From positions 1,312,001 through 1,376,000 of the forward strand of contig CBDATS010000004.1 in assembly GCA_965200245.1 (NCBI GenBank): 64,000 bases of DNA, given 5' to 3'. The position numbers were made by a program, and so were the translations under genes. Every line of letters starts with the position of its first letter. The stretch's first letter is position 1. The notes under the pieces are model-generated. The model was not told where the DNA came from, did no database searches, and saw only the letters and a list, made by a program, of their open reading frames with translations. The stretch is from a bacterium. Its GTDB lineage: Bacteria > UBA8248. Of the stretch, positions 1,621 to 61,415 are shown in pieces.

Positions 1621-1872
1621 GTGAAACTGGACGCCGTGAAATTCGGTCTGGCCGCAGGCATCATCTACGGGGCCCTGTTTTTCCTGTACGCTCTGTTGGG
1701 CGCGCTGTTCGGCGTCGGCGGGGAAATGCTGAAAGTGATAGGCGATTTTCATCCAGGCGTTTCCCCCACCTATCCGGGAGCGATCATCGGCGCGGCCTGG
1801 GGATTCGCGATAGGTTTTCTTTTCTTCGCAGTACTGGCGTGGATATACAACCGCCTGCTGGGCAGGGAGTAG
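1621..1872 (+). CDS. small membrane protein (holin-like family, function uncertain)
   Basis: 83 aa, hydrophobic helices, ends WIYNRL. Confidence 0.65.
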   Translation: MKLDAVKFGLAAGIIYGALFFLYALLGALFGVGGEMLKVIGDFHPGVSPTYPGAIIGAAWGFAIGFLFFAVLAWIYNRLLGRE

Positions 1873-1903
1873 CGACTTCCTGGCGGGGCCGTCGAAAAAA
1901 TCC

Positions 1904-1940
1904 GGGAATTGTATACTTGAATCCACAAGCCTGAACACCT
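1904..1940 (+). mobile_element. IS1595-like terminal repeat at the left edge of the RiPP locus
   Basis: GGGAATTGTATACTTGAATCCACAAGCCTGAACACCT resembles both ends of the 59916-60637 element; partner end not found. Confidence 0.7.
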
Positions 1941-2132
1941 GAATTCAAGAAAACGGACCCTTCGGCCACCGTTTTCCCGGGAGAAAGCCCGTTCCTCACC
2001 GCAAAAACGAGAAAAACGTCAAAAAACTTCTTGCTTTCCCACCGGAATATCCCATACCTAGTTCATGATAACGATGCAAAAAGGCGTAGTGGATATGAAC
2101 CCATCCTCATTTCTCCAGGAAAGGAACCCAGA

Positions 2133-2399
2133 ATGAAATCTGCTGCCGAGATGCGCGAGCACCTGATCGAGAAGGCTAGCGACAGTGAGGAGTTCCGTGC
2201 CCGTCTTATCTCCGATCCGAAGGCCGTGATATCGGAGGAGTTAGGAGTAGCGATGCCGGAGAATTTCAACCTGCATGTGATGGAGGACGACGCCGAGAAC
2301 AGCTATCTCGTCCTTCCGCCTGCGTCCCAGCTCACCGAGGAAGATCTGGAAGCCGCTCAAGGCGCATTTTATCATGAAGATGGAACTCCGTGGGTCTGA
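2133..2399 (+). CDS. NHLP-leader (proteusin-type) RiPP precursor A, predicted core FYHEDGTPWV
   Basis: FRARLISDPKAVI...LVLPP...LTEEDLEAAQGA leader; RBS AGGAAAGGA. Confidence 0.9.
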   Translation: MKSAAEMREHLIEKASDSEEFRARLISDPKAVISEELGVAMPENFNLHVMEDDAENSYLVLPPASQLTEEDLEAAQGAFYHEDGTPWV

Positions 2400-2600
2400 T
2401 CTGTGTGATGAGGAACAGCCGGAAACCGTTCCCGGCGGATATTTGCAGAATTGAGGTCGTGATCCCTGTACGAAAAAAGCTGACACGAACATACGCGAAC
2501 CTACAATGGAAACAGATTCAACCTTCAGGTCTCGGTGGCCTGCAGGGTTTCTCAGGGTGTTGTTGCCCTGAATGCCGGTTGTCAAAAAGGAGACGGGAAA

Positions 2601-2882
2601 ATGGCTGGCGAGTTCCAGGCCGTGGACGAATTTCATGATTATCTGCGCAACAGGGCGGTAGAGGACGAGGCGTTCAGGGCCCGCCTGCTGTCCGATCCCA
2701 GGATGGTGATAGAAGAAGAGCTGGACATGACCATTCCGGAAGGCTTCAGCATCGAGGTGCACGAGGACACGGCCGCGACCGCTCACCTGGTGCTTCCGCC
2801 TTCGGCAGTGCTCGCCGAAGAGGACCTGCAAGCCGTCAGCGGGGGCGATATGGACTGGTGCACGTCATCGGGGGCGGTATGA
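2601..2882 (+). CDS. NHLP-leader RiPP precursor B, predicted core DMDWCTSSGAV
   Basis: DEAFRARLLSDPR...HLVLPP...LAEEDLQAVSGG double-glycine leader; AAGGAG RBS. Confidence 0.9.
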   Translation: MAGEFQAVDEFHDYLRNRAVEDEAFRARLLSDPRMVIEEELDMTIPEGFSIEVHEDTAATAHLVLPPSAVLAEEDLQAVSGGDMDWCTSSGAV

Positions 2883-2946
2883 GCTGGCGCAGTCCCATCT
2901 AAATGACCAGCGGTCACGACTGAATCGAAAGCAGGGACACACGCAC

Positions 2947-4128
2947 TTGTCTGACGGATTTCAGTTTCGCCAGCAACAGCGCGATAGCCTGTCCTTCGGG
3001 AGTTTTCTCGCAGGAATGAGGCAAATGTTTCCGTCGGCCCTGTTGAGCGGCGGAGGGTGGGAACGTATTCAGGTCATGGCGGAACGGCTGCCTGTTGATG
3101 TGATCGACCAGCCGTTCGGTTTCGAGTTTGATCTTGACCGAGAATCGGCCAAGGCTGACTTCTGTGTATGCCCGGCGAGCGGCTTCGCCCTTGCCGGGCA
3201 CTACATTCGTGAGGGGGCCGAGGCACCAGAAGGTTCTGCCGCGGCTGCCCTTGGTGCTTGTCTTGCCCGAGATGAGGACGACCCCGTTTCGTTTCTGTCA
3301 CGCAGAGACGGTGGTATTATTCTTGAGTACGACGTGCCGGATGTGCTCCCGGAGGAGCCGGCAGTTCCGGGTGTCTTCTTCGTGCCCCGTGCCAAGACTG
3401 CAAGTGCTGCCCGGAAGCTCCACGACGATCCATCGGAAACCGTGGCCGCACTTTGGGATGTGGCCGCCTGGCGCGCTGACGCCGAGGAACTGCGCTAGGT
3501 CCAACGGGTATACGAGGCTCTCTCCGGTGCCAGTTACTTTGTTCAGGCGGGCGTGTTACCGGGGCGGCAGCAGCGCGCGGTGCGTCTGGCAGTGCATCGT
3601 ATAGACACCGCCGAACTTCCCGGTCTGCTCGAACAACTGCGCTGGCCGGGCTCTCCTGACGCGGTTATGTCAGTAATCGCGGATACGGAAGACCTTACCC
3701 AACCCGGTAGCGTGCTCAGTCTTGATGCCGCCGCGAGCGGCATTTCGCCGCGCGTGGGGCTGGAATTGTTTCGTTCCGTGGAGAGGGCTCGCGTCGACCA
3801 TGCAGGTTGGCAGCCGATGATCAATCGGTTGGCGGACAGGTCGTGTTGTGTGCCTGCGAAGGCCGAGGGCCTGCGCGCGTGGCCGCGTGCCGAGCGGTTG
3901 CTCGGCCCCGGTGGCGTCTATCGGCTTCATTTGACCATCAGCCACATCAAGGTGAGCTTTCCGGGTTTCGCGCCGCGCTTGTCGGCATCTCATGTGCCGA
4001 TCAGACGTCCGCCTCGCCTGGGTGAGCACACCAGTGAACTGTTGGGCACCGAACTCGCGTTGGACGATGCGCAGATCGATGCACTGCGAGACGCCGGGGT
4101 GATCGGCGGCCCGCCGCCATCCGATTGA
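2947..4128 (+). pseudogene. putative RiPP-tailoring protein (possibly prenyltransferase-like), interrupted by TAG and fused at its 3' end to a CoA-transferase tail
   Basis: ORFs 2947-3498 and 3553-4128 share a frame across TAG 3496-3498; last ~55 aa resemble the CaiB/BaiF C-terminus (PPRLGEHT). Confidence 0.55.
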
Positions 4129-4153
4129 CTTCCCAGACGCCTGGAGGAGGGAT

Positions 4154-5369
4154 ATGCCGGCACTGGATGGAATGAAAGTCCTCGACATGACCCAGTACGA
4201 GGCGGGCCCAGCGTGCACGCAACTCCTGGCGTGGTTCGGGGCGGAGGTAGTCAAGGTCGAGTCTCCCGAACGAGGCGATGGAGCCCGCGTTTTCTCCCGG
4301 GGGGGGCGGCTCCAAAGGTTACGCAGCTTTCTTCTGCGCCTGGAACGCGAACAAGCGCAGCCTGGCGGTGGACCTCCGCAGCCGGCAGGGTCGGGATCTG
4401 TTTCTGCGTTTGGTACCGCTGTTCGATGTCCTGGTGGAAAACTACGGACCCGGCGTAGTCGAACGATTCGACATCGGCTACGAAAGGCTCAGCGCCATCA
4501 ACCCGGGCCTGATCTGCGCCCGGATCAAGGGCTTCGGTGTCAGTGGCCCCTATTCAGGTTTCCCCAGCGTCGATCCGACGGCGCAAGCGGCCGCGGGGGC
4601 GTTCTCTGTCAACGGCGAGGCGGCCGGGCCGCCGATGATGCCGGGTCCGCTGATGGCTGATTCGGGCACCGGTCTACAGGCGGCGATGGCAGTGCTGGCG
4701 GCTTGGGCGCAGAAGCAGCGGACAGGTGAAGGGCAACTGGTCGAGTTGTCGATGCAGGAGTCGGTAACATACTACCTGCGCTCCCACTTCTTCCGCGCAA
4801 GGGACAGAACGCGGGCGGCGCCGCGCACTGGCAACGTATACGGCCTGCCGCCGGCTGGTCTATATCCGTGCAAACCGTTCGGCGCCAATGACTACATCTA
4901 CCTTCAACCTCTCACCGATGCCCACTGGGACGCTCTGTGCAAGGCCATGGATCGTGACGACATGCGCACCGATCCGCGCTTCTACAGCCAGCGCTGGCGC
5001 CTGCAGAACGCTGACGCGCTGCGCGAAGAGATCGGCGCCTGGGCTGCCGAACGTACCAAATACGAGGCCATGGAGACCATCGCCGGCGCCGGCGTGCCCT
5101 GTTCCGCATGTCTGGATACGATCGATCTGCACCGGGACCGCCACCTGACCGCGCGCGGTTTCATCCACGAACTGGATCTACCGGTGCATGGAAAGGTGCG
5201 AATGCTGGGATTCGCTCCGGGGCCTTCGACATCGTGCGTCACAATGAAGCGCCCGCCCCGCCTCGGCGAGCATACCGACGAAGTACTCAACGAGGAGCTG
5301 GACCTGAGCGACGCGGAACTCAAGGCGCTGCACGACGCTGGTGTCATCCGGAACGCCGCTCGTCAGTAA
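4154..5369 (+). pseudogene. CaiB/BaiF family III CoA-transferase (formyl-CoA transferase-like), frameshifted
   Basis: [12 protein letters not shown]-terminus in one frame; NANKRS, VENYGPG, PPRLGEHT in the +1 frame; shift near G8 run 4299-4306. Confidence 0.85.
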
Positions 5370-5400
5370 CGGACGGGTTGCCCCCCCGCCAGGTGCACCG

Positions 5401-5637
5401 TTAAGTTATCTGGCGACGCGTCAGGTCGCGAAAGACGCCCGGCATATCGATCAGTTCCGCAAAGGTCCCTTTCCTGCGCCACCCGCCCCTCGTCGAGCAG
5501 GTAGATTCGGTCCACCTTGTGGATAGTGGACAGCCGATGGGCAATGACGATGCGGATGACGGCAAGTTGCTCGATCTGCGCATGATCTCTGCCTGGATGT
5601 TGTTGTCGAGGGAACTGGTGGTCTCGTAGAGCAGCAC
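5401..5637 (-). pseudogene. 3' remnant of an ABC exporter ATPase (NHLM bacteriocin-exporter-like)
   Basis: TSSLDNNIQ, IVIAHRLSTI, DRIYLLDEGRV and GTFAELI...RRQI spread over shifted frames. Confidence 0.7.
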
Positions 5638-19127: not shown

Positions 19128-21715
19128 GTGGCTGCCGCCTGCCCAAAGGGAGGAAAGTTGCAACATGAACGGAATTTGGAATTTCTTCGGCATTTTGAAC
19201 TTGACAAGCCGGGCGGGTGCCAGCAACATCGACGCAGGCCAGTCTTTCCGCCTGAATCCTGTTCTTCCCTTCCCGCCGACGGGCGCTCCGCTTCCCGCGG
19301 TCGCGCACCATCCTTCAGAAGTTACGGCCTCTGCACCCTTGGCATCCTGCTGCTGACCTTCCTGCTCGCCGGCCCGGCCGCCGCGGACAACTAATGCGGC
19401 GACCCGCCCACCACCGGCAACCCCAGAGTCATCACCTGCAGCGATTCCACCTACGACCCGGGTCCCAACGACGACCCCGGCATCGAGTATGAATTCGATG
19501 CCTCCGACGAAAACAACTACACCATCAACGTCTCCGGCACCATTGCTGTCAACACGACAGCCGAGGATGACTACGGCCTTTATGGAATACACAAGGGCGG
19601 CGGCGACCTCACGATCAGGATGACCGGCGGCAGCATTGGGACCACTGGGAACTATGCCTCCGGCATCTTCGGATACATTTTCAGTTCTGGCTCAACCGGC
19701 GATGTCTGGATCGAACTGAAGGACAACGGCTCCATCGAGACGGCAGGACAGCAGGCCCACGGGATCTACGGAAACCACACCGGAGGCTCCGGCGATCTCG
19801 TCATCAGCCTTGCGGACACGAACAGCAACGCCGAGACCACCAGCATCACGACGGAAGGAAATAGCGCCAACGGCATATACGGGCGGTTGACCGGAGCGGG
19901 CTCCATCACCATTGACGTGACCGGCGGCCAGATCAGCACGGGCAAGGAGAACGACGACGGGACCGTAACCGTAATGGCCAGTCACGGCATCTTCGGAGAC
20001 CACGAAGGCGCCAGCGGCCTCACCATCAACCTGACCGGCGGCGACATCGCAACGATAGGGGGGAACTCCTACGGCATCTACGGCAGCCACGCCGGCGAGG
20101 GCGCCCTCTCCATCACCATGTCGGGCGGCAGCATCGACACGGACGGGATCTCCGCCCACGGCCTTCATGGCTACCATGAACACAACACGGCCCTCGCCAT
20201 CACCATGTCCGGGGGCACCATCCAGACCGGCAAGGTGAACACTGACGGAAGCGTTACCGGAAATTCCGCCTACGGCATCCACGGGCGGCACGCCGGGGAA
20301 GACCTCGCCACTTCCAGCCTCACCATAGGCATGACCGGCGGCAGCATCATGACCGGTGGCGGTCACGGCATCGCCGGGGTACACCGCAGCGGCACCATCG
20401 ACGTCACCGTGTCGGGCGGCCGCATCGTGACCACCGGCAGCGGCGCGAACCATATCCATTTCGCCGCTACGGACGCGGCCAGGACCCTGACGCTTCGCAG
20501 GGCCCGGCTGATACGCCCGGCCGACGCCGGCGGCAGTTACGGAAGTCGATCCTCTTCGGGGGCGACGCCGACGACAGACTGACCATTGAAGGGCACATCG
20601 AGCAGACCACGATCCGGGGCGATGTGGCGTTCGGCGGCGGCAGCGACACGCTTGTCTTCAGTACCTGCCGGGAGGCCGATATCAGCGAGAACACTGCCTG
20701 CGAGGAGCAGACAGCCAGCGCGGGCGATCTCACCCTGAGCCATACCACCGGGATGTTTACCGGGCTGGAGAGCATCCGCAAGATCGGCTCGGGCACAGCT
20801 CGGCTGACCGATCTGGGCGCGGCGGGTGCGATGATGTCGCTGGAGGACGGCGACCTGCGCCTGACGGAGGCCGTCCTGGAGGGGTATCCGGTGCGCAGGG
20901 GAAGCGGTCCGGACGGGCGTTCGGTGAGGTTCGGGCTCCGCGGGGGTTCCGGAACCCGCGCCGTCTCCCTCGACATGGACCTGCGTCTCGGGGCGTCGGT
21001 GGCCCCCCTCGCCGAGGCGTTCTCGGATTCCCGGGACGAATCGGCCGAGGTCGAGCTCACGGGCGAGGTCTACGCGGCCGGTCTGGGCTGGCGGGGAGAC
21101 GCGTTTTTCTCCGACGTGGCGCTCGCCCACGGCCGCTCGCGCGTATCATCACGGACGCTGGAGGCCACTGGCCTGTTCAGGGGCTCGTTCGACGTGAAGC
21201 AGACCCATGCCGAAGCGAGGGCAGGTCGGCTGTTCCCCGCCGGAGGCATGCGCATCACCCCGTCGGTGTCGGTGTTCGCCGGTTCCCTGGACCACGGGGG
21301 CCACACGGCGGAGGGCGCGGTGATGAGGGCCGAGATCCCGGGCTACTCGCAGGACTACCGGGGATGTCGGGCCGGGGTGGAGGTCGCGACGGCGGAGTGG
21401 CTGGAACTCTCCCCCGCGCTGCGCTGGCGGCCCGACCTGCAACTGGATCTGGCACACACCACGACGGACGGACCGGAGACGCTGACGGTGCGCAAGGCGG
21501 ACCATGCCGGGGTCATAAGCTTCCCCGAGAAAAAACGGGTGATCGGCGTGCCCCGGGAGGCGTTCCGCCTCGGTCTGGGCGTCACGCTGAAAGGCAGTTC
21601 GGATGCCTGGAGCCTGCGCCTCGGTTACCGGGGAGAATGGACCGGCGGCGAGGACGAATGGGCCGGCCGTGAGGACGAACATTCCGTGCAGGCGGGCTTC
21701 TCGATACGGTTCTAG
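19128..21715 (+). pseudogene. autotransporter/adhesin-like protein, copy 1
   Basis: signal-like LLLTFLLAGPAAA; TAA 19392-19394 (GAA in paralog); MTGGSIxTxG..HGIYG repeats; frameshift ~20545; barrel-like end GFSIRF. Confidence 0.75.
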
Positions 21716-21860
21716 AACCACTTCCCGACAGCCCGGCAGTCCCCGTGACTGCCGGGCTGTCGGGCGGGGCAGTGGATCCCGGTCGGGCCCGAGGCGAAGC
21801 ACCGACCGGGAAACGTCTTTCGGGCAGCACGCAACCCCTCCCCGTAACAGGTTAACCTGG
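20605..21860 (+). repeat. 1,256-bp direct repeat, copy 1 (copy 2 at 49703-50958)
   Basis: constant offset 29,098; identical ORF translations in several frames. Confidence 0.95.
21724..21764 (+). terminator. 18-bp perfect stem-loop after the autotransporter stop (also at 50822-50862)
   Basis: CCCGACAGCCCGGCAGTC-CCCGT-GACTGCCGGGCTGTCGGG; no U tail. Confidence 0.55.
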
Positions 21861-22774
21861 ATATATGTCTCCCCTTATCAACCACACCCAGTGGCCGCCC
21901 AGGGAGAACTCGGCCATGCGTTCTGTGTTGCCCTTGCCTGAATGAAACATCTGTATTGTTTCCGATGAATGCATGGTAGAGGACATGGAGGGTATCCAGA
22001 AGCAAGCCCGCGTGATGGCTATATCGGATGAGAACCCCCCCAAAGGCGCTCTCCACCTTCCTGCAGCCCGAAGGTGATTACGACGAGCGCTGCGGACGGC
22101 AAGGCCTATATCAGCCAACACCTCGGCGCTGGCGTTTGGATTCCTGAGTCCGACTTTTGGGGGCGAGAATCGTTCAACGCCAGAGAAATGAATGAGATAA
22201 TTTATTGAACGACCTTACACATATTTTCCTGGATATTGAACATGATCTTGACAATTGGGACGATGCCTGTCAGCGTTCGCTCGGCTCCCGAGAAAAACGG
22301 ACTCGCGTTCAACGATTCGCACGAGGCCGCTACCGCGCTTGATGTGCTGGCCCGATGATTCCTGCCCCGGGGTCAGCCTGATTTTCATAACTTCATGGAA
22401 ACGTTCGGCTTCTCGCCACAGGCCTGTTTCTTCGATCTCGGCCTGCTGTTCTATACGGGCGCTCGTTTCACCGGCGACAGATTCGGTGTCACTGATACTT
22501 TCGATGGTTTTGATCGTCCCTTCCGCTGTACTTTCGATGTCTCGGGTTATCAGCACTGCGGAAATGACGCGACGAACCCCGCCACCGCTGAGCCGTCGGT
22601 CTTCCGCCGCGATCCGATCGACAGGTTTGACCCCCATGCGGTGGAGGTAGCTCGCCGGAATGGCGTTCCCCTCGGATATATCCATTATCCACGGCTGTTC
22701 GTAATCGCCGATATCGATCTTGCCATGCAAAAGGTTCGCGCAGTTTCAGTATCCCCGCGTCTCGGTTGCCTTGG

Positions 22775-48552: not shown

Positions 48553-50813
48553 ATGAGGGGGCCGGCCGGATGGCGGCACGGGACAAGCCGCCGGGTCTCC
48601 CCGCCTGAATCCTGTTCTTCCCCTCCCGCCGGTGGACGTTCCGCTTCCCGCAGTCGCGCGTCTTCCATCAGGGCTTTCGGTTCCTGTGTCCTGGCCGTTC
48701 TCCTGCTGACCTTCCTGCTCGCCGGCCCGGCCGCCGCAAACAACGAATGCGGCGACCCGCCCAACACTGGCGACCCCAGAGTCATCACCTGCGACGGAGA
48801 CGACCAGACCAACGCCGCTGGCGGCATCGAATGCCAGTTCGGCGACAACAACCAGGCCGACGCCAACGACTACACCATCATGGTCAAGGCAAAGTCAGGC
48901 GGCACCGGCCTCGACATCGACACGACGGCCGACGATACCAGCGGCGTTCTTGGAGAACACGGATCGACCGGCAACCTCACCATCGAGATGTCCGCGGCGA
49001 CATCGAGACTACAGGGAAGAACGCCCACGGCGTCCACGGGAGACACGACGGCACCGGTGAGCGCAAAATCTCCATCAGCATGTCCGGCGGGAACATCAAG
49101 ACCGGGACCGGGAGTGGCCAGGATACCGGGCGATTTGCTTTGGGTCTCTATGGAGAAACCGCAAGCAACAACTCCGGCAACCTGTCCATCACCATGTCCG
49201 GCGGCACTATCGAGACCGGGTTCGGGGACGGCACGGGAGCAGGCCATGGCGCCGCCGGCATCTATGCCAAGAAAATCGGCACGGGCATGTCCACCGTCAC
49301 CCTGTCGGGCGGCGACATCCATACCAAAAATAGCAAGGCCCACGGAATTTTTGGCACGGCCAATTACACAAAGCAGGGCCGTTTTACCGTCCACGTTCCC
49401 ACGGGCACCGTGGATATCGGTATGACCGGCGGCAGCATCACGACTTCCGGAAGCGGCGCCCGCGGCATCTACGCGCAGCACGAGGGTACCGGTGCTTTCG
49501 ACCCCGTCGTGGTCGAGGACAGCACGATCTCCGCAGCCCAGGCGGAAGCGATCTATCTCGAGGCCGACCCCGCCAAGACCCTGAGGCTCAGGAACAGTTC
49601 GATCTCAACTGGCGCCACCTCCGGCAACGCGATCGGGTTCAGCGGCAACACCGACGACACCCTGACGGTCCTGGGACATGAGGACGCTGGCATGACGGCC
49701 ACGACCACGATCCGGGGCGATGTGGCGTTCGGCGGCGGCAGCGACACGCTTGTCTTCAGTACCTGCCGGGAGGCCGATATCAGCGAGAACACTGCCTGCG
49801 AGGAGCAGACAGCCAGCGCGGGCGATCTCACCCTGAGCCATACCACCGGGATGTTTACCGGGCTGGAGAGCATCCGCAAGATCGGCTCGGGCACAGCTCG
49901 GCTGACCGATCTGGGCGCGGCGGGTGCGATGATGTCGCTGGAGGACGGCGACCTGCGCCTGACGGAGGCCGTCCTGGAGGGGTATCCGGTGCGCAGGGGA
50001 AGCGGTCCGGACGGGCGTTCGGTGAGGTTCGGGCTCCGCGGGGGTTCCGGAACCCGCGCCGTCTCCCTCGACATGGACCTGCGTCTCGGGGCGTCGGTGG
50101 CCCCCCTCGCCGAGGCGTTCTCGGATTCCCGGGACGAATCGGCCGAGGTCGAGCTCACGGGCGAGGTCTACGCGGCCGGTCTGGGCTGGCGGGGAGACGC
50201 GTTTTTCTCCGACGTGGCGCTCGCCCACGGCCGCTCGCGCGTATCATCACGGACGCTGGAGGCCACTGGCCTGTTCAGGGGCTCGTTCGACGTGAAGCAG
50301 ACCCATGCCGAAGCGAGGGCAGGTCGGCTGTTCCCCGCCGGAGGCATGCGCATCACCCCGTCGGTGTCGGTGTTCGCCGGTTCCCTGGACCACGGGGGCC
50401 ACACGGCGGAGGGCGCGGTGATGAGGGCCGAGATCCCGGGCTACTCGCAGGACTACCGGGGATGTCGGGCCGGGGTGGAGGTCGCGACGGCGGAGTGGCT
50501 GGAACTCTCCCCCGCGCTGCGCTGGCGGCCCGACCTGCAACTGGATCTGGCACACACCACGACGGACGGACCGGAGACGCTGACGGTGCGCAAGGCGGAC
50601 CATGCCGGGGTCATAAGCTTCCCCGAGAAAAAACGGGTGATCGGCGTGCCCCGGGAGGCGTTCCGCCTCGGTCTGGGCGTCACGCTGAAAGGCAGTTCGG
50701 ATGCCTGGAGCCTGCGCCTCGGTTACCGGGGAGAATGGACCGGCGGCGAGGACGAATGGGCCGGCCGTGAGGACGAACATTCCGTGCAGGCGGGCTTCTC
50801 GATACGGTTCTAG
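48553..50813 (+). pseudogene. autotransporter/adhesin-like protein, copy 2
   Basis: signal LLLTFLLAGPAAA; 1-nt deletion ~48994 (ATGTCCGCGGC vs repeat consensus ATGTCCGGCGGC); MSGGxIxTG repeats; GFSIRF end. Confidence 0.78.
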
Positions 50814-50958
50814 AACCACTTCCCGACAGCCCGGCAGTCCCCGTGACTGCCGGGCTGTCGGGCGGGGCAGTGGATCCCGGTCGGGCCCGAGGCGAAGCAC
50901 CGACCGGGAAACGTCTTTCGGGCAGCACGCAACCCCTCCCCGTAACAGGTTAACCTGG
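49703..50958 (+). repeat. 1,256-bp direct repeat, copy 2
   Basis: matches 20605-21860. Confidence 0.95.
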
Positions 50959-59798: not shown

Positions 59799-60114
59799 GG
59801 AAATACCCTCTTTTTAGAAAACAGATGCGCAGATTACATTGGGAAGGAGAAGATAGGAAAGCCTGAATCGAAATAAGTGGCGGACGGTGGCCATCCGCCT
59901 CATTTCCTTTACGAGGGGAATTATCTACTTAAATCCGCAGGTCTGGATATCTTGATTTTTGCGTTTCCAGGTGTACCGTTTGCGTCACGGGCGGAATTAC
60001 TGCCAGAATCAGTTTATGCGCCGCCTTCTTCCATTCAGCCCATACACCGGATCTGACAGTAACTCAGTGGGCCCTTTCGTATATGACTTCCCTTATTGAT
60101 ACCAGCCGTGATCG

Positions 60115-60381
60115 TCAAGGTATTCGACCGCCAAACGGATCGTATTGGCCGCCACTGGCGTCTTCCAGCTGTTCCTCGGTGAGCCGTGCCGCAGGCGGGA
60201 GGACGAGATAGCTGTTCTCGGCGTCGTCTTCCATCACATGCAGGTTGAAATTCTCCGGCATCGTCACCCCGAACTCCTCCGATATCACGGCCTTCGGCTC
60301 GGAGATAAGGCGGGCACGGAATTCCTCGTTATCGCCTGCCTTCTCGATCAGGTGCTTGCGCATCTCGGTAACGGATTTCAT
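60115..60381 (-). CDS. NHLP-leader RiPP precursor C, predicted core QYDPFGGRIP
   Basis: leader 64/78 aa identical to precursor A and ends LEDASGG. Confidence 0.9.
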   Translation of the reverse strand: MKSVTEMRKHLIEKAGDNEEFRARLISEPKAVISEEFGVTMPENFNLHVMEDDAENSYLVLPPAARLTEEQLEDASGGQYDPFGGRIP

Positions 60382-60459
60382 TCTGGGCTCCTTTCCTGGA
60401 GAAATGAGTATGGGTGGATCCCCTCGATGTTTTCGTTTTTTTGCATCGTCATCATGGGC

Positions 60460-60488
60460 AGGATATGGATGTTCCGACGGGAAAGCAA
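60460..60488 (-). promoter_or_regulatory. sigma70-like promoter inside the cassette
   Basis: TTGCTT-N17-TATCCT; TTGCTT is conserved at 2031-2036 in the other copy. Confidence 0.55.
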
Positions 60489-61415
60489 GAAATTTTCTGA
60501 CGTTTTACTGGTGAGGAACGAGTTTCCTCCCGGAGGCCCGTCCGTATGCCACCGTTCTCCCGGGAAACCGGCGGCCGAAGGATCCGTTTTTCCAGAATTC
60601 AGCTATTCAGACTTGTGGATTTAAGGATGTAATTCCCTTTGCGAGAGATAAAAAAGATCTACATCCGTTTTCTCCATGCCGCCCGCTGGATGACAGGGCG
60701 GCTTCCCTTTATGGTTTCAGGAATCCATGGAAAGAAACGGAACGAGAGGTCGATTTCCATCTCTCCCCATCCCCCATGCTGCCTACGGGCGATGCCCTGT
60801 TGCAGGGCAGGACCGAGCGGAGAAAGCGGCGTAAGCGCGTCAGGGAGAAACGGCGCGCTTGCCTGGACCTTTGTGGCCAGGCGAGGGATAAATCATACGG
60901 CCTATGGGTTTTGGAGTCGCACGCGAAAAAGGGAGCTCAGGCTCAGGCGTCAGTCTCGATTCAAGTTCCTTTTGTTGGGCCTGCCAATCCTCGAAAGAGA
61001 TATGACCTTGCAAATAAAGGGCGAGATTCCGCATGCAAGCTTCGTGAATGCGTTTCGATATTTGGCTCGTCTTATGTGCCTTGTCCCCGGGTATTCGAGT
61101 TTTCATCACCATGAAGGGCCTCCTTTTTCGCTTTCCCTCCACCTGAACGGGATCAGCTTGATAATCTATATATAGTGCTTTCTGTGCAATAATGCACTAT
61201 ATTTTGTGTTAAAATTGGAATAAAAATTGTTGCTATATGGAAAATTCTTGTATTTGCCGGTCATGCGAAAATTCATGAAACACAGTCCTTTGTTTTCTGG
61301 AGATGTCTGGCGCCATAATATCAGCATGTTAAGATGATATTGTTTATGCCTTACATTTCGTCCCGCATGAAAAAATCTTCGCGGGGGAAATCCGCCAAGG
61401 TGAAAAGGATCTGCC

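Follow-up and report, generated by a model that had tools for sequence, protein, structure and literature searches.

Three precursor genes for peptides that are made on ribosomes and modified after translation (RiPPs), referred to here as A, B and C, lie in a 64-kb stretch of DNA from a bacterium of the Nitrospinota, where they precede, or stand apart from, genes of a candidate maturase family, X. The stretch, called the window throughout, corresponds to C4:1312001-1376000 of its source metagenome-assembled genome (MAG; G000), an assembly of 3.68 Mb in 15 contigs with a completeness of 95.8 % and a contamination of 8.11 %. Bare positions refer to the window, and C2, C4, C5, C8, C15 and the like to contigs of the genome. 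Based on EF-G, the 22 other species of the genus used for comparison, i.e. the congeners, are Nitrospinota or Nitrospinaceae MAGs, the source genome being likewise a Nitrospinota MAG; the sequencing runs that contain the locus of A, B and the adjoining X copy carry a sponge metagenome label. An earlier note on the window had taken the three genes for a dispersed peptide library, with conserved NHLP-type leaders and unrelated cores. This report follows the precursor genes through the genome and the genus, and considers how they may have spread and which enzymes may act on them.

Precursors A, B and C

Good ribosome-binding sites precede the open frames A and B, and A, B and C all score above the cut-off of the NHLP leader model, NCBIfam TIGR03793 (leader_NHLP, 50.9 bits), with which the genome was searched in six frames (Table 1). 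A recount from the genome coordinates returned the figures and the three core sequences of the earlier note, with A and C identical at 64 of 78 leader residues and at 2 of 10 core residues. The leader of B is of another lineage, with ~41 % identity to the other leaders. Downstream of B is a decayed member of family X, whose members are ~340 aa long; thus the X copy neighbouring A is broken, and C has no X within 56 kb.

Table 1. Precursor genes, cassette parts and X genes, with window positions unless a contig is named (TIR, terminal inverted repeat)
Feature	Position	Strand	Details
A cassette, 5' TIR arm	1904-1937	+	GGGAATTGTATACTTGAATCCACAAGCCTGAACA; -241 from leader-model start; 5 errors vs C arm; C4:1313904
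A cassette, conserved 5' region	1938-2132	+	Untranslated; identity 0.43-0.83 from -257 to -4 (19 loci)
Precursor A	2133-2399	+	Open frame; TIGR03793 68.6 bits vs 50.9
A, leader	2133-2366	+	78 aa; ends QGA
A, core	2367-2396	+	FYHEDGTPWV
A, stop	2397-2399	+	
Sigma-70-like match upstream of B	2480-2507	+	CTGACA-16-TACAAT, 10/12; 1 found vs 0.3 expected; consensus match only
Precursor B	2601-2882	+	Open frame; TIGR03793 58.2 bits vs 50.9
B, divergent NHLP leader	2601-2846	+	Ends SGG
B, core	2847-2879	+	DMDWCTSSGAV
Decayed X copy after B	2947-4128	+	In-frame TAG at 3496-3498; 235 bits to family profile
C target duplication, left copy	59908-59915		TTTACGAG; 7/8 identical to right copy
C cassette, 3' TIR arm	59916-59957	-	42 nt; 79 % complementary to 60596-60637
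55-nt fragment in 3' part of C cassette	60016-60069	-	91 % over 55 nt to C4:705182-706424
Precursor C	60115-60381	-	TIGR03793 71.7 bits vs 50.9
C, stop	60115-60117	-	
C, core	60118-60147	-	QYDPFGGRIP
C, leader	60148-60381	-	78 aa; ends SGG
C cassette, conserved 5' region	60382-60595	-	
C cassette, 5' TIR arm	60596-60637	-	GGGAATTACATCCTTAAATCCACAAGTCTGAATAGCTGAATT
C target duplication, right copy	60638-60645		TTTGCGAG; 7/8 identical to left copy
X	C2:5726-6745		Intact; 183 nt after NLYY precursor
X	C2:7332-8396		Intact
X	C8:325398-326492		Intact; 254 nt after TQAYANFINAWNSLS precursor
X	C15:99063-100196		Intact; 1.2 kb from AYRLDIF precursor
X	C5:367030-368013		Without last ~15 residues, including K328/Y330; 696 nt before EWVWH
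X	C8:216386-217411		TAG in place of Trp codon; beside exporter
X	C2:78013-78144		44-aa fragment; 101 nt from SYGDGYWGA
X	Contig-end copy		Duplicate

A lineage-specific precursor family

Run across the whole genome, as the earlier note had envisaged, the leader model returned 34 matches over its cut-off; at E <= 1e-8, there are 35 matches in this genome compared to 0-7 per genome in the congeners. The description of a conserved NHLP leader joined to hypervariable short cores in many dispersed paralogues is thereby borne out. Since the starts of contigs C2 and C15 are 100 % identical duplicates over 4.8 kb, the matches at C15:296 and C15:2287 were dropped as contig-end duplicates of the C2 start, leaving 32 non-redundant precursor matches, 27 of which have both a start codon and the cleavage motif L-x4-G[GAS] or AG. 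Among the 30 gene models with a start, the three that lack the motif (C4:571249, C8:198971 and C2:3364) are frameshifted; two further matches (C4:2269 and C2:305163) have no start codon, and at C4:1517847, among the 27, the stop is gone and the frame runs on for 46 residues. A leader of the A/C type is absent from the 26 congener precursors that were read, out of 30 over the cut-off. A and C belong to a precursor family with NHLP leaders that counts about 30 genes and is specific to this lineage. Directly after some precursors there are partial second leaders, either leader ends or leaders without a start (downstream of C15:101324, at C2:305123-305360 and at C4:2229-2466), which look like footprints of tandem rearrangement. 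At C4:787172-787567 (-), two sub-cut-off matches to the leader model fall in a 265-aa His-rich protein that resembles the alpha-type subunit of nitrile hydratase or thiocyanate hydrolase rather than a precursor.

Counted from the start codon, the 19 loci of the A/C subfamily have a mean nucleotide identity between pairs of 0.43-0.91 over the stretch from about -257 to +236, with values of 0.67-0.91 within the leader and a drop to <=0.3 exactly at the core; a comparison of leader and core divergence was among the checks that the earlier note had proposed. A second subfamily of seven loci has an identity of 0.79-1.00 from -112 to +244 and of ~0.4 beyond. The ratio of non-synonymous to synonymous differences per site (pN/pS) in the leader is 0.42 (13 distinct leader DNAs), and the leader thus appears to be under moderate purifying selection. 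However, the leaders of many copies are 98-100 % identical, and with copies of such recent origin a low divergence is of little weight for or against selection.

Twenty-three distinct cores were recognized, of which 22 have a length of <=20 aa, these short cores being 3-15 aa long. Tryptophan and tyrosine make up 45 of 197 core residues (22.8 %) as opposed to 3.5 % of the residues of long open reading frames (ORFs) in the genome and 1.0 % of those of the leaders, with a binomial probability of 1.4e-23 that is overstated, because the cores are related by descent. Trp or Tyr is present in all 22 short distinct cores, an aromatic residue occupies position 1 or 2 in 14 of them, and Cys occurs in only one, that of B. 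Otherwise the cores cannot be aligned, but the shared Trp or Tyr and some recognizable homologies contradict the earlier claim that they are unrelated. Thus, QYDPFGGRIP of C is akin to VYDPFGGQMP at C2:305163, and AYWM is akin to AYWGDVPNHV, the nucleotide comparison revealing a deletion inside the core. Elsewhere, a 1-nt deletion conceals a core reading LYDNPYYGS, the variants include a frameshifted twin of SYWDDVDTIHMG, and shifts of the stop codon are a further route of core change.

The earlier note had also proposed that cores are swapped at the GG/GA junction. One mosaic pair, C2:305163 and C4:2269, speaks for an exchange of this kind: the two are identical as far as GAGGAACAGCTGG (EEQL) and then diverge, the former resembling C in its EDASGG, its core VYDPFGGQMP and ~230 nt of 3' flank, the latter resembling the YYNRIFD type. 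The breakpoint of this clean mosaic lies in the conserved EEQL. Recombination through the conserved leader end thus does swap one 3' module for another, but it did so here six codons upstream of the GG, the pair is the sole clear case found, and the other changes are by indels. Core change is better explained by indels and frameshifts than by swapping at GG/GA. A diversity-generating retroelement was considered as the source of core variation and set aside, as the genome has no reverse transcriptase (RVT_1) match.

A mobile cassette around the precursors

Sequence homology among the copies begins and ends at fixed borders, which around C consist of a 42-nt inverted repeat (Table 1). In a scan of 33 loci, a 5' arm was recorded in 21 rows and a 3' arm in 15, both arms being present in 11 distinct cassettes that measure 599-1005 nt, have TIRs of ~35-42 nt and contain only the precursor. 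The 8-mers flanking these 11 cassettes match at 8, 8, 8, 7, 7, 7, 6, 6, 4, 4 and 2 of 8 positions, i.e. the 8-bp duplication is perfect in three and matches at 7/8 in three, the other five having 6/8 or less, whereas random pairs of 8-mers at cassette spacing reach an identity of >=7/8 with P = 7.8e-4. Two pairs of near-identical copies sit at different sites with different duplications, namely C4:571249 and C8:198971 (99.8 % identical over 957 nt) as well as C4:72578 and C4:84732 (100 % identical over 695 nt). An empty site is also available for C, the flanks of which are ~54 nt apart in two more distant congeners versus 983 nt here.

Allowing <=3 mismatches, there are 27 occurrences of the arm in this genome, in comparison with none in a reversed control or in the 22 congeners; a looser census gave 32 arms, and all but three of these (29) lie at precursor loci. 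With a degenerate arm pattern, a 729-nt AT-rich cassette was found in the congener OZ253442.1 (L148:5057-5785); it shares the arms, its flanks show a duplication at 7/8, and it carries a different cargo, namely two small ORFs of 84 and 141 aa. A Ca. Oxydemutatoraceae MAG has solo or short arm copies, including a 262-nt pair without cargo (L150:3269-3530). These finds suggest a cassette family common to bacteria of different lineages. No transposase gene lies in any cassette. In the search for an autonomous partner, nothing was found beside the solo arms, the 1.1-1.4-kb repeats of the genome have other ends, the 22 congeners gave no match at <=3 mismatches, and scans of wider collections gave only short or solo copies. 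The structure, with TIRs and target duplications, is that of a putatively non-autonomous cassette. Transposition of such bounded cassettes is the better explanation of the dispersal of the precursor genes. For B, the scan of precursor loci found TIR arms on neither side; B is a resident, non-mobile precursor adjoining a broken enzyme gene.

That the multiplicity of copies is an artefact of assembly or binning, with copies derived from collapsed or mixed strains, is hardly credible. Although the contamination of the assembly, the duplicated contig starts (copies since removed) and the breaking of other runs' short-read contigs inside the leader are what such an artefact might produce, the copies have unique flanks and target duplications of their own, several copies share one 1.54-Mb contig, and the stretch of A, B and X recurs, free of differences, in contigs from the sequencing runs of two studies.

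Two minor features concern the cassettes of the window. A stretch near 2441-2470, ~65 % similar by eye, was not counted as the 3' arm of the A cassette. The 55-nt fragment in the 3' part of the C cassette, a motif that recurs 3' of the cores in the C-type subfamily, is probably, judging by its match, the end of an insertion sequence, namely a 1.24-kb repeat that is present in two copies (C4:705182-706424 and C5:732589-733832) and has an ORF of 402 aa. The window also contains two ~1.26-kb stretches that are >90 % identical to each other (20605-21873 and 49703-50958), the second overlapping a 688-aa ORF with repetitive Gly/Thr-rich sequence.

Upstream region and expression

The 5' region of the precursor genes has a consensus that includes a palindromic CGGCCGCCGG/TCCCGGGA segment and the ribosome-binding site AGGAGACC; nothing relevant to it was found in Rfam at E <= 1. 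In two RNA libraries of one study, contigs cover 2292-2805 and 2777-3730, with 0-1 differences and a depth of 5-6, similar to that of DNA runs, thereby spanning the 3' end of A, B and the X pseudogene; stretches without cover there are not evidence of any kind. A and C are presumably expressed.

Family X, a candidate maturase

Besides the decayed copy in the window, the genome has eight further paralogous X stretches, one of which is a contig-end duplicate (Table 1). The window copy is 32-35 % identical both to a genus-wide 375-aa type and to a paralogue of its own genome, and has no clear orthologue. From ~3886 its frame continues as a CoA-transferase-like C-terminal tail that replaces the last strand of the family, residues 314-386 matching the C-terminus of a CaiB-like gene at 5133-5348. 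Where it has its TAG, the paralogues have ordinary residues, and the contigs of three runs from two studies show the TAG unchanged. Programmed TAG read-through, with or without pyrrolysine, was rejected as an explanation, given that the two TAGs of the family stand at different alignment positions and that one replaces the TGG Trp codon of the closest paralogue; both in-frame TAGs are thus read, from the alignment, as probable nonsense mutations. The CaiB/CoA-transferase-like gene that follows (4154-5369) seems split between two frames, 4154-4660 and 4278-5369, and its C-terminal ~70 residues are duplicated in window 3886-4128.

At E <= 0.001, family X comprises 3,504 cluster representatives. 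E47 and K306 are shared by all of 84 members compared, and D58, E111, D113, R183, K275, H304, K328 and Y330 are conserved at >=90 %. An AlphaFold model built from five paralogues reached a predicted local distance difference test (pLDDT) value of 80 and a predicted template-modelling score (pTM) of 0.81, with five alpha-alpha-beta-beta repeats. Foldseek returned 79 PDB matches for this model at E <= 0.001, and all those listed are ABBA aromatic prenyltransferases with a probability of 1.00, namely EpzP, AmbP1, NphB/Orf2, DMATS, PagF and KgpF. X is, therefore, likely to be a family of soluble enzymes with the ABBA (PT-barrel) prenyltransferase fold, as far as the predicted structure indicates. 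By sequence, X has no place in the DMATS, Orf2/CloQ or PatF/TruF families (Pfam, NCBIfam and PDB). A 679-aa representative (P0142), at first a candidate for a fusion of X and a cyclase, is a tandem X.

The X family occurs in 15 of the 22 congeners and in none of 28 other genomes of the phylum. At all 11 congener loci read, X lies after a precursor whose conserved core is TQTWQDFANAWNSLNQNS or one of its variants, and at all 14 loci read in 11 congeners the precursor that the 375-aa paralogue faces has LCCCW or, once, LSCCW as its core. (A genus-wide five-residue core after an NHLP leader, LCCCW is a Cys3-Trp pentapeptide and as such unusual for a RiPP.) In the congener G025, a precursor ending in IYY, X, HlyD, a C39 ATP-binding cassette (ABC) transporter and a second ABC transporter form a row on one strand. 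In the source genome, cassette-type leaders lie beside X copies at C5:368709, C15:101357 and C2:78245. By gene order, the linkage of precursor, X and exporter is a recurrent one. Cores conserved among orthologues in the absence of extra paralogues, which the earlier note saw as speaking against a library, were encountered in part: extra paralogues are abundant, and the cores linked to an enzyme are conserved among orthologues, the A/C-type precursors being without orthologues among the 26 of 30 congener precursors read. The predicted fold and this linkage make it likely that X matures NHLP peptides whose cores are very short and aromatic. The predicted complex of an intact X with its neighbouring precursor scored 0.13 against a mark of 0.32, a result that speaks on neither side of the question of binding. 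From the model, we infer that X may transfer a prenyl group to the Trp or Tyr of the core in a leader-dependent manner.

Exporter and other enzymes

The genome has a single C39 peptidase, which belongs to an NHLP export set at C8:219.6-225.6 kb, unlinked to the window. The set scores 902 bits with TIGR03796 (cut-off 853), 684 bits with TIGR03797, just under the cut-off of 709, and 82 bits in a partial match to TIGR03794 (cut-off 156). The C39 exporter presumably cleaves after G-G, G-A or G-S. Given that most cassette-borne precursors have no adjoining enzyme and that the exporter is complete, their products might be leader-cleaved but otherwise unmodified linear Trp/Tyr/Asp-rich peptides, acting as signals or in the manner of bacteriocins, with X serving the resident precursors only. 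There is general precedent for this, as class II bacteriocins and competence peptides need no more than a double-glycine leader to be exported. However, a structured NHLP leader of 78 aa far exceeds the needs of export and, in the cases described in PMC12715784 and PMC10853753, such leaders bind maturases; moreover, the universal Trp or Tyr of the cores suggests a step directed at side chains, and leaders of the cassette type do lie beside X copies, as listed above. Unmodified products are, on these grounds, an improbable outcome, and modification by X is retained as the working explanation.

Lanthipeptide, azole and SPASM routes were considered and dismissed, since the genome has no LanC-like match and neither a YcaO nor a SPASM match over the cut-off. 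In agreement with the first two absences and the presence of Cys in only one of 22 short cores, A and C had been judged poor lanthipeptide or thiazole substrates at the outset. The label of proteusin, which the earlier note attached to NHLP leaders, could not be kept: the leader alone is insufficient, and in place of a radical-SAM epimerase or similar tailoring gene in the cluster, the two radical-SAM genes that lie close to precursors encode MoaA and QueE, with 17 other radical-SAM matches left out of account. To our knowledge, the cores of known proteusins are far longer than the 3-15 aa seen here.

Two further enzymes adjoin precursors or X outside the window. The first is a 430-aa cytochrome P450 at C2:3839-5128 (-), flanked on one side by a frameshifted precursor and on the other by the NLYY precursor and two X genes. 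Oxidative aromatic cross-linking of the biarylitide, cittilin or aminopyruvatide-like kind, rather than prenylation, might on that account be the defining modification; the P450 matches the model of the RiPP P450 ApyO weakly (46 bits, cut-off 525), and the cores are rich in Tyr and Trp. Yet the genome has only two distinct P450 genes, just one of which is near precursors, the G025 operon combines precursor, X and exporter with no P450 among the ORFs scanned, and it is X, not P450, that recurs as the partner across the genus. Cross-linking as the general modification is, thus, very improbable, although a Tyr-Tyr cross-link at the NLYY cluster is conceivable. Prenylation by X accordingly remains the preferred reading, and the proposal of the earlier note that aromatic residues are modified is the best inference that the modelled ABBA fold of X, its position next to precursors and the one P450 at the NLYY cluster would permit.

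The second enzyme, a 318-aa protein encoded beside the broken X at C8, belongs to a family whose profile finds class II terpene cyclases with values between 1e-12 and 1e-18, including SHC (8.7e-18), drimenol synthase (4.8e-17), 8paj and AstC, MstE being matched at only 0.015. At the acid motif DxDD(T)A, the family consensus LPPDLDDTA is YADDSA in the 318-aa copy, a second copy is cut at 137 aa, and the cyclase-like copies of this genome therefore look impaired; a single-sequence structure model of the protein had a pLDDT of 38. In some relatives, the cyclase-like protein begins with a fused nitrile-hydratase-alpha/NHLP-like domain at its N-terminus (P0164, 435 aa), with fusion frames of 435-533 aa in congeners, e.g. 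G027:C4:1526420-1526608, such that a leader-like domain is carried by an enzyme and not by a substrate.

A model for the precursor library

The account favoured here, with rather more confidence than doubt, is that NHLP precursors scattered by a cassette are prenylated in trans by ABBA-fold X enzymes and exported by the C39 ABC transporter. Put as a sequence of events, a small non-autonomous cassette of 0.6-1.0 kb, with its 5' region, 78-aa leader and core, has multiplied and scattered the A/C family. After insertion, the leader is kept and the core diverges by indels, frameshifts, stop shifts and occasional recombination at the leader end. The leaders would recruit soluble ABBA-fold X enzymes, which would prenylate the Trp or Tyr that every core retains, intact X copies elsewhere acting in trans on A and C. 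Finally, the single NHLP-type exporter with its C39 peptidase would cut after G-G, G-A or G-S and secrete short lipidated peptides. Of the original interpretation, the dispersed library is upheld, the aromatic target stays the best inference, the proteusin label is given up, and core swapping survives in part.

A number of observations weigh against this account. Five of the 32 precursor matches are frameshifted or start-less and one more reads through its stop, and four of the nine X stretches, i.e. those at A/B, beside the exporter, on C5 and at C2:78013, are damaged. No sigma-70 consensus was found upstream of A or C, and the depth of the RNA libraries is no higher than that of DNA runs, making DNA carry-over possible. 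As to the cassette, a target duplication is not seen in three of the 11 complete copies, that of A is incomplete at its 3' end, with no recognizable 3' arm within window 1850-5600, and this assembly (95.8 % complete) yielded no transposase gene whose ends match. As to X, three intact copies and six family representatives gave no Pfam or NCBIfam match at E <= 1, the X profile found no PDB chain at E <= 1, and the template-modelling scores of the X model are only 0.42-0.54.

The decay among precursors and X copies, the degenerate or truncated state of both cyclase-like genes, the lack of a recognized promoter for A or C, the depth of the RNA libraries and the confinement of the expansion to this genome would also suit a view of the dispersed copies, including A and C, as hitch-hiking junk, i.e. 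unprocessed passengers, with only the resident, enzyme-linked precursors being functional. That view, though of real weight, is unlikely. The leader pN/pS is 0.42 and not ~1, even if the recency of the copies makes this a weak argument either way; the Trp or Tyr and the G-G, G-A or G-S site are kept in all 22 short cores that otherwise cannot be aligned; the ribosome-binding site and 5' region are conserved; and an intact exporter as well as four fully intact X enzymes remain. A functional, cassette-borne library is hence still preferred. A bolder version of it, in which a transposon captured a whole precursor module and so became a library generator, each insertion founding a new locus whose core drifts while the leader keeps the trans-acting enzymes and exporter in play, is put forward tentatively, with doubt outweighing belief.

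The wider interest of the system is threefold. If the products are made, it would offer a mechanism for the expansion of a combinatorial peptide library in a symbiont and a tractable model for expansion of the prochlorosin type. Family X is an unannotated prenyltransferase-fold family missed by genome mining based on Pfam. Lastly, the ~20 natural core variants on one leader represent a ready panel of substrates for assessing enzyme tolerance.

Comparison with known systems

Peptide libraries with NHLP/Nif11 leaders are not new, reportedly having been noticed by Haft as early as 2010. The library described here resembles that of the prochlorosins, which in marine picocyanobacteria combine Nif11/NHLP-type leaders with ProcM, in having a long conserved leader with hypervariable cores, tens of scattered precursors, few maturases acting in trans and a double-glycine C39 exporter. 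It differs in having no LanM or LanC, the search for LanC-like genes having given zero matches, in its cores of 3-15 aa with Cys in 1/22, in its candidate maturase with an ABBA fold, and in precursors that sit inside cassettes bounded by TIRs and target duplications; it is, as such, not a lanthipeptide library of the prochlorosin type. For the prochlorosins, expansion of the library has been described as associated with TnpA_REP transposases, the source (10.1101/2020.03.09.984088) giving no causal evidence and treating the driver as open.

Leader-dependent prenylation by ABBA enzymes has been in print since 2024-2025. In the MppC/MppE system of Moorena producens, as described in PMC12715784, an ABBA enzyme needs the L-x4-L motif of a Nif11 leader and geranylates Trp. 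Compared by that description, X and MppC have in common a soluble ABBA enzyme, a long structured leader and the Trp of a very short core; unlike the system here, which has no cyclization machinery, MppC is described as preferring a core cyclized by lanthionine. In the RiPPs of the NctPC type, which bear polycyclic isoprenoid moieties (Hubrich et al., Chem 2024), according to the review PMC13290415, an ABBA-fold prenyltransferase of low similarity to the cyanobactin enzymes geranylgeranylates Trp, and an MstE-like class II cyclase then acts. By that review's description, the likeness lies in the ABBA fold and a class II cyclase-like neighbour, here the 318-aa protein beside two X copies, and the difference in the two functions being separate genes here, with cyclase-like copies that look impaired and none of them near A, B or C. 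In a third system, PalX/PalQ of Paenibacillus alvei, the precursor is of the NHLP type and its 8-aa core is prenylated on the C-terminal Trp, a reaction that the leader enhances (PMC10853753). PalQ, however, has a ComQ/isoprenyl-synthase fold in place of ABBA, and the source describes a single conserved precursor with a histidine kinase and no library.

The cassettes themselves find their closest counterpart among mobile elements. A full-text literature search, with most subscription journals outside its reach, found no published RiPP precursor gene as the passenger of a cassette with TIRs and target duplications. Miniature inverted-repeat transposable elements (MITEs) and mobile insertion cassettes are non-autonomous bacterial elements with TIRs and target duplications, and sometimes with passenger genes. 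The cassettes of this genome differ from them in that their passenger is a RiPP precursor gene and that the scans found no autonomous partner. They are like them in being short, in having TIRs and 8-bp duplications, in the lack of a transposase, in their many copies and in the variable passenger seen in a relative; in TIRs and 8-bp target duplication, they conform to such elements. Transposition marks of this kind on precursor genes make the origin of one-leader peptide libraries testable.

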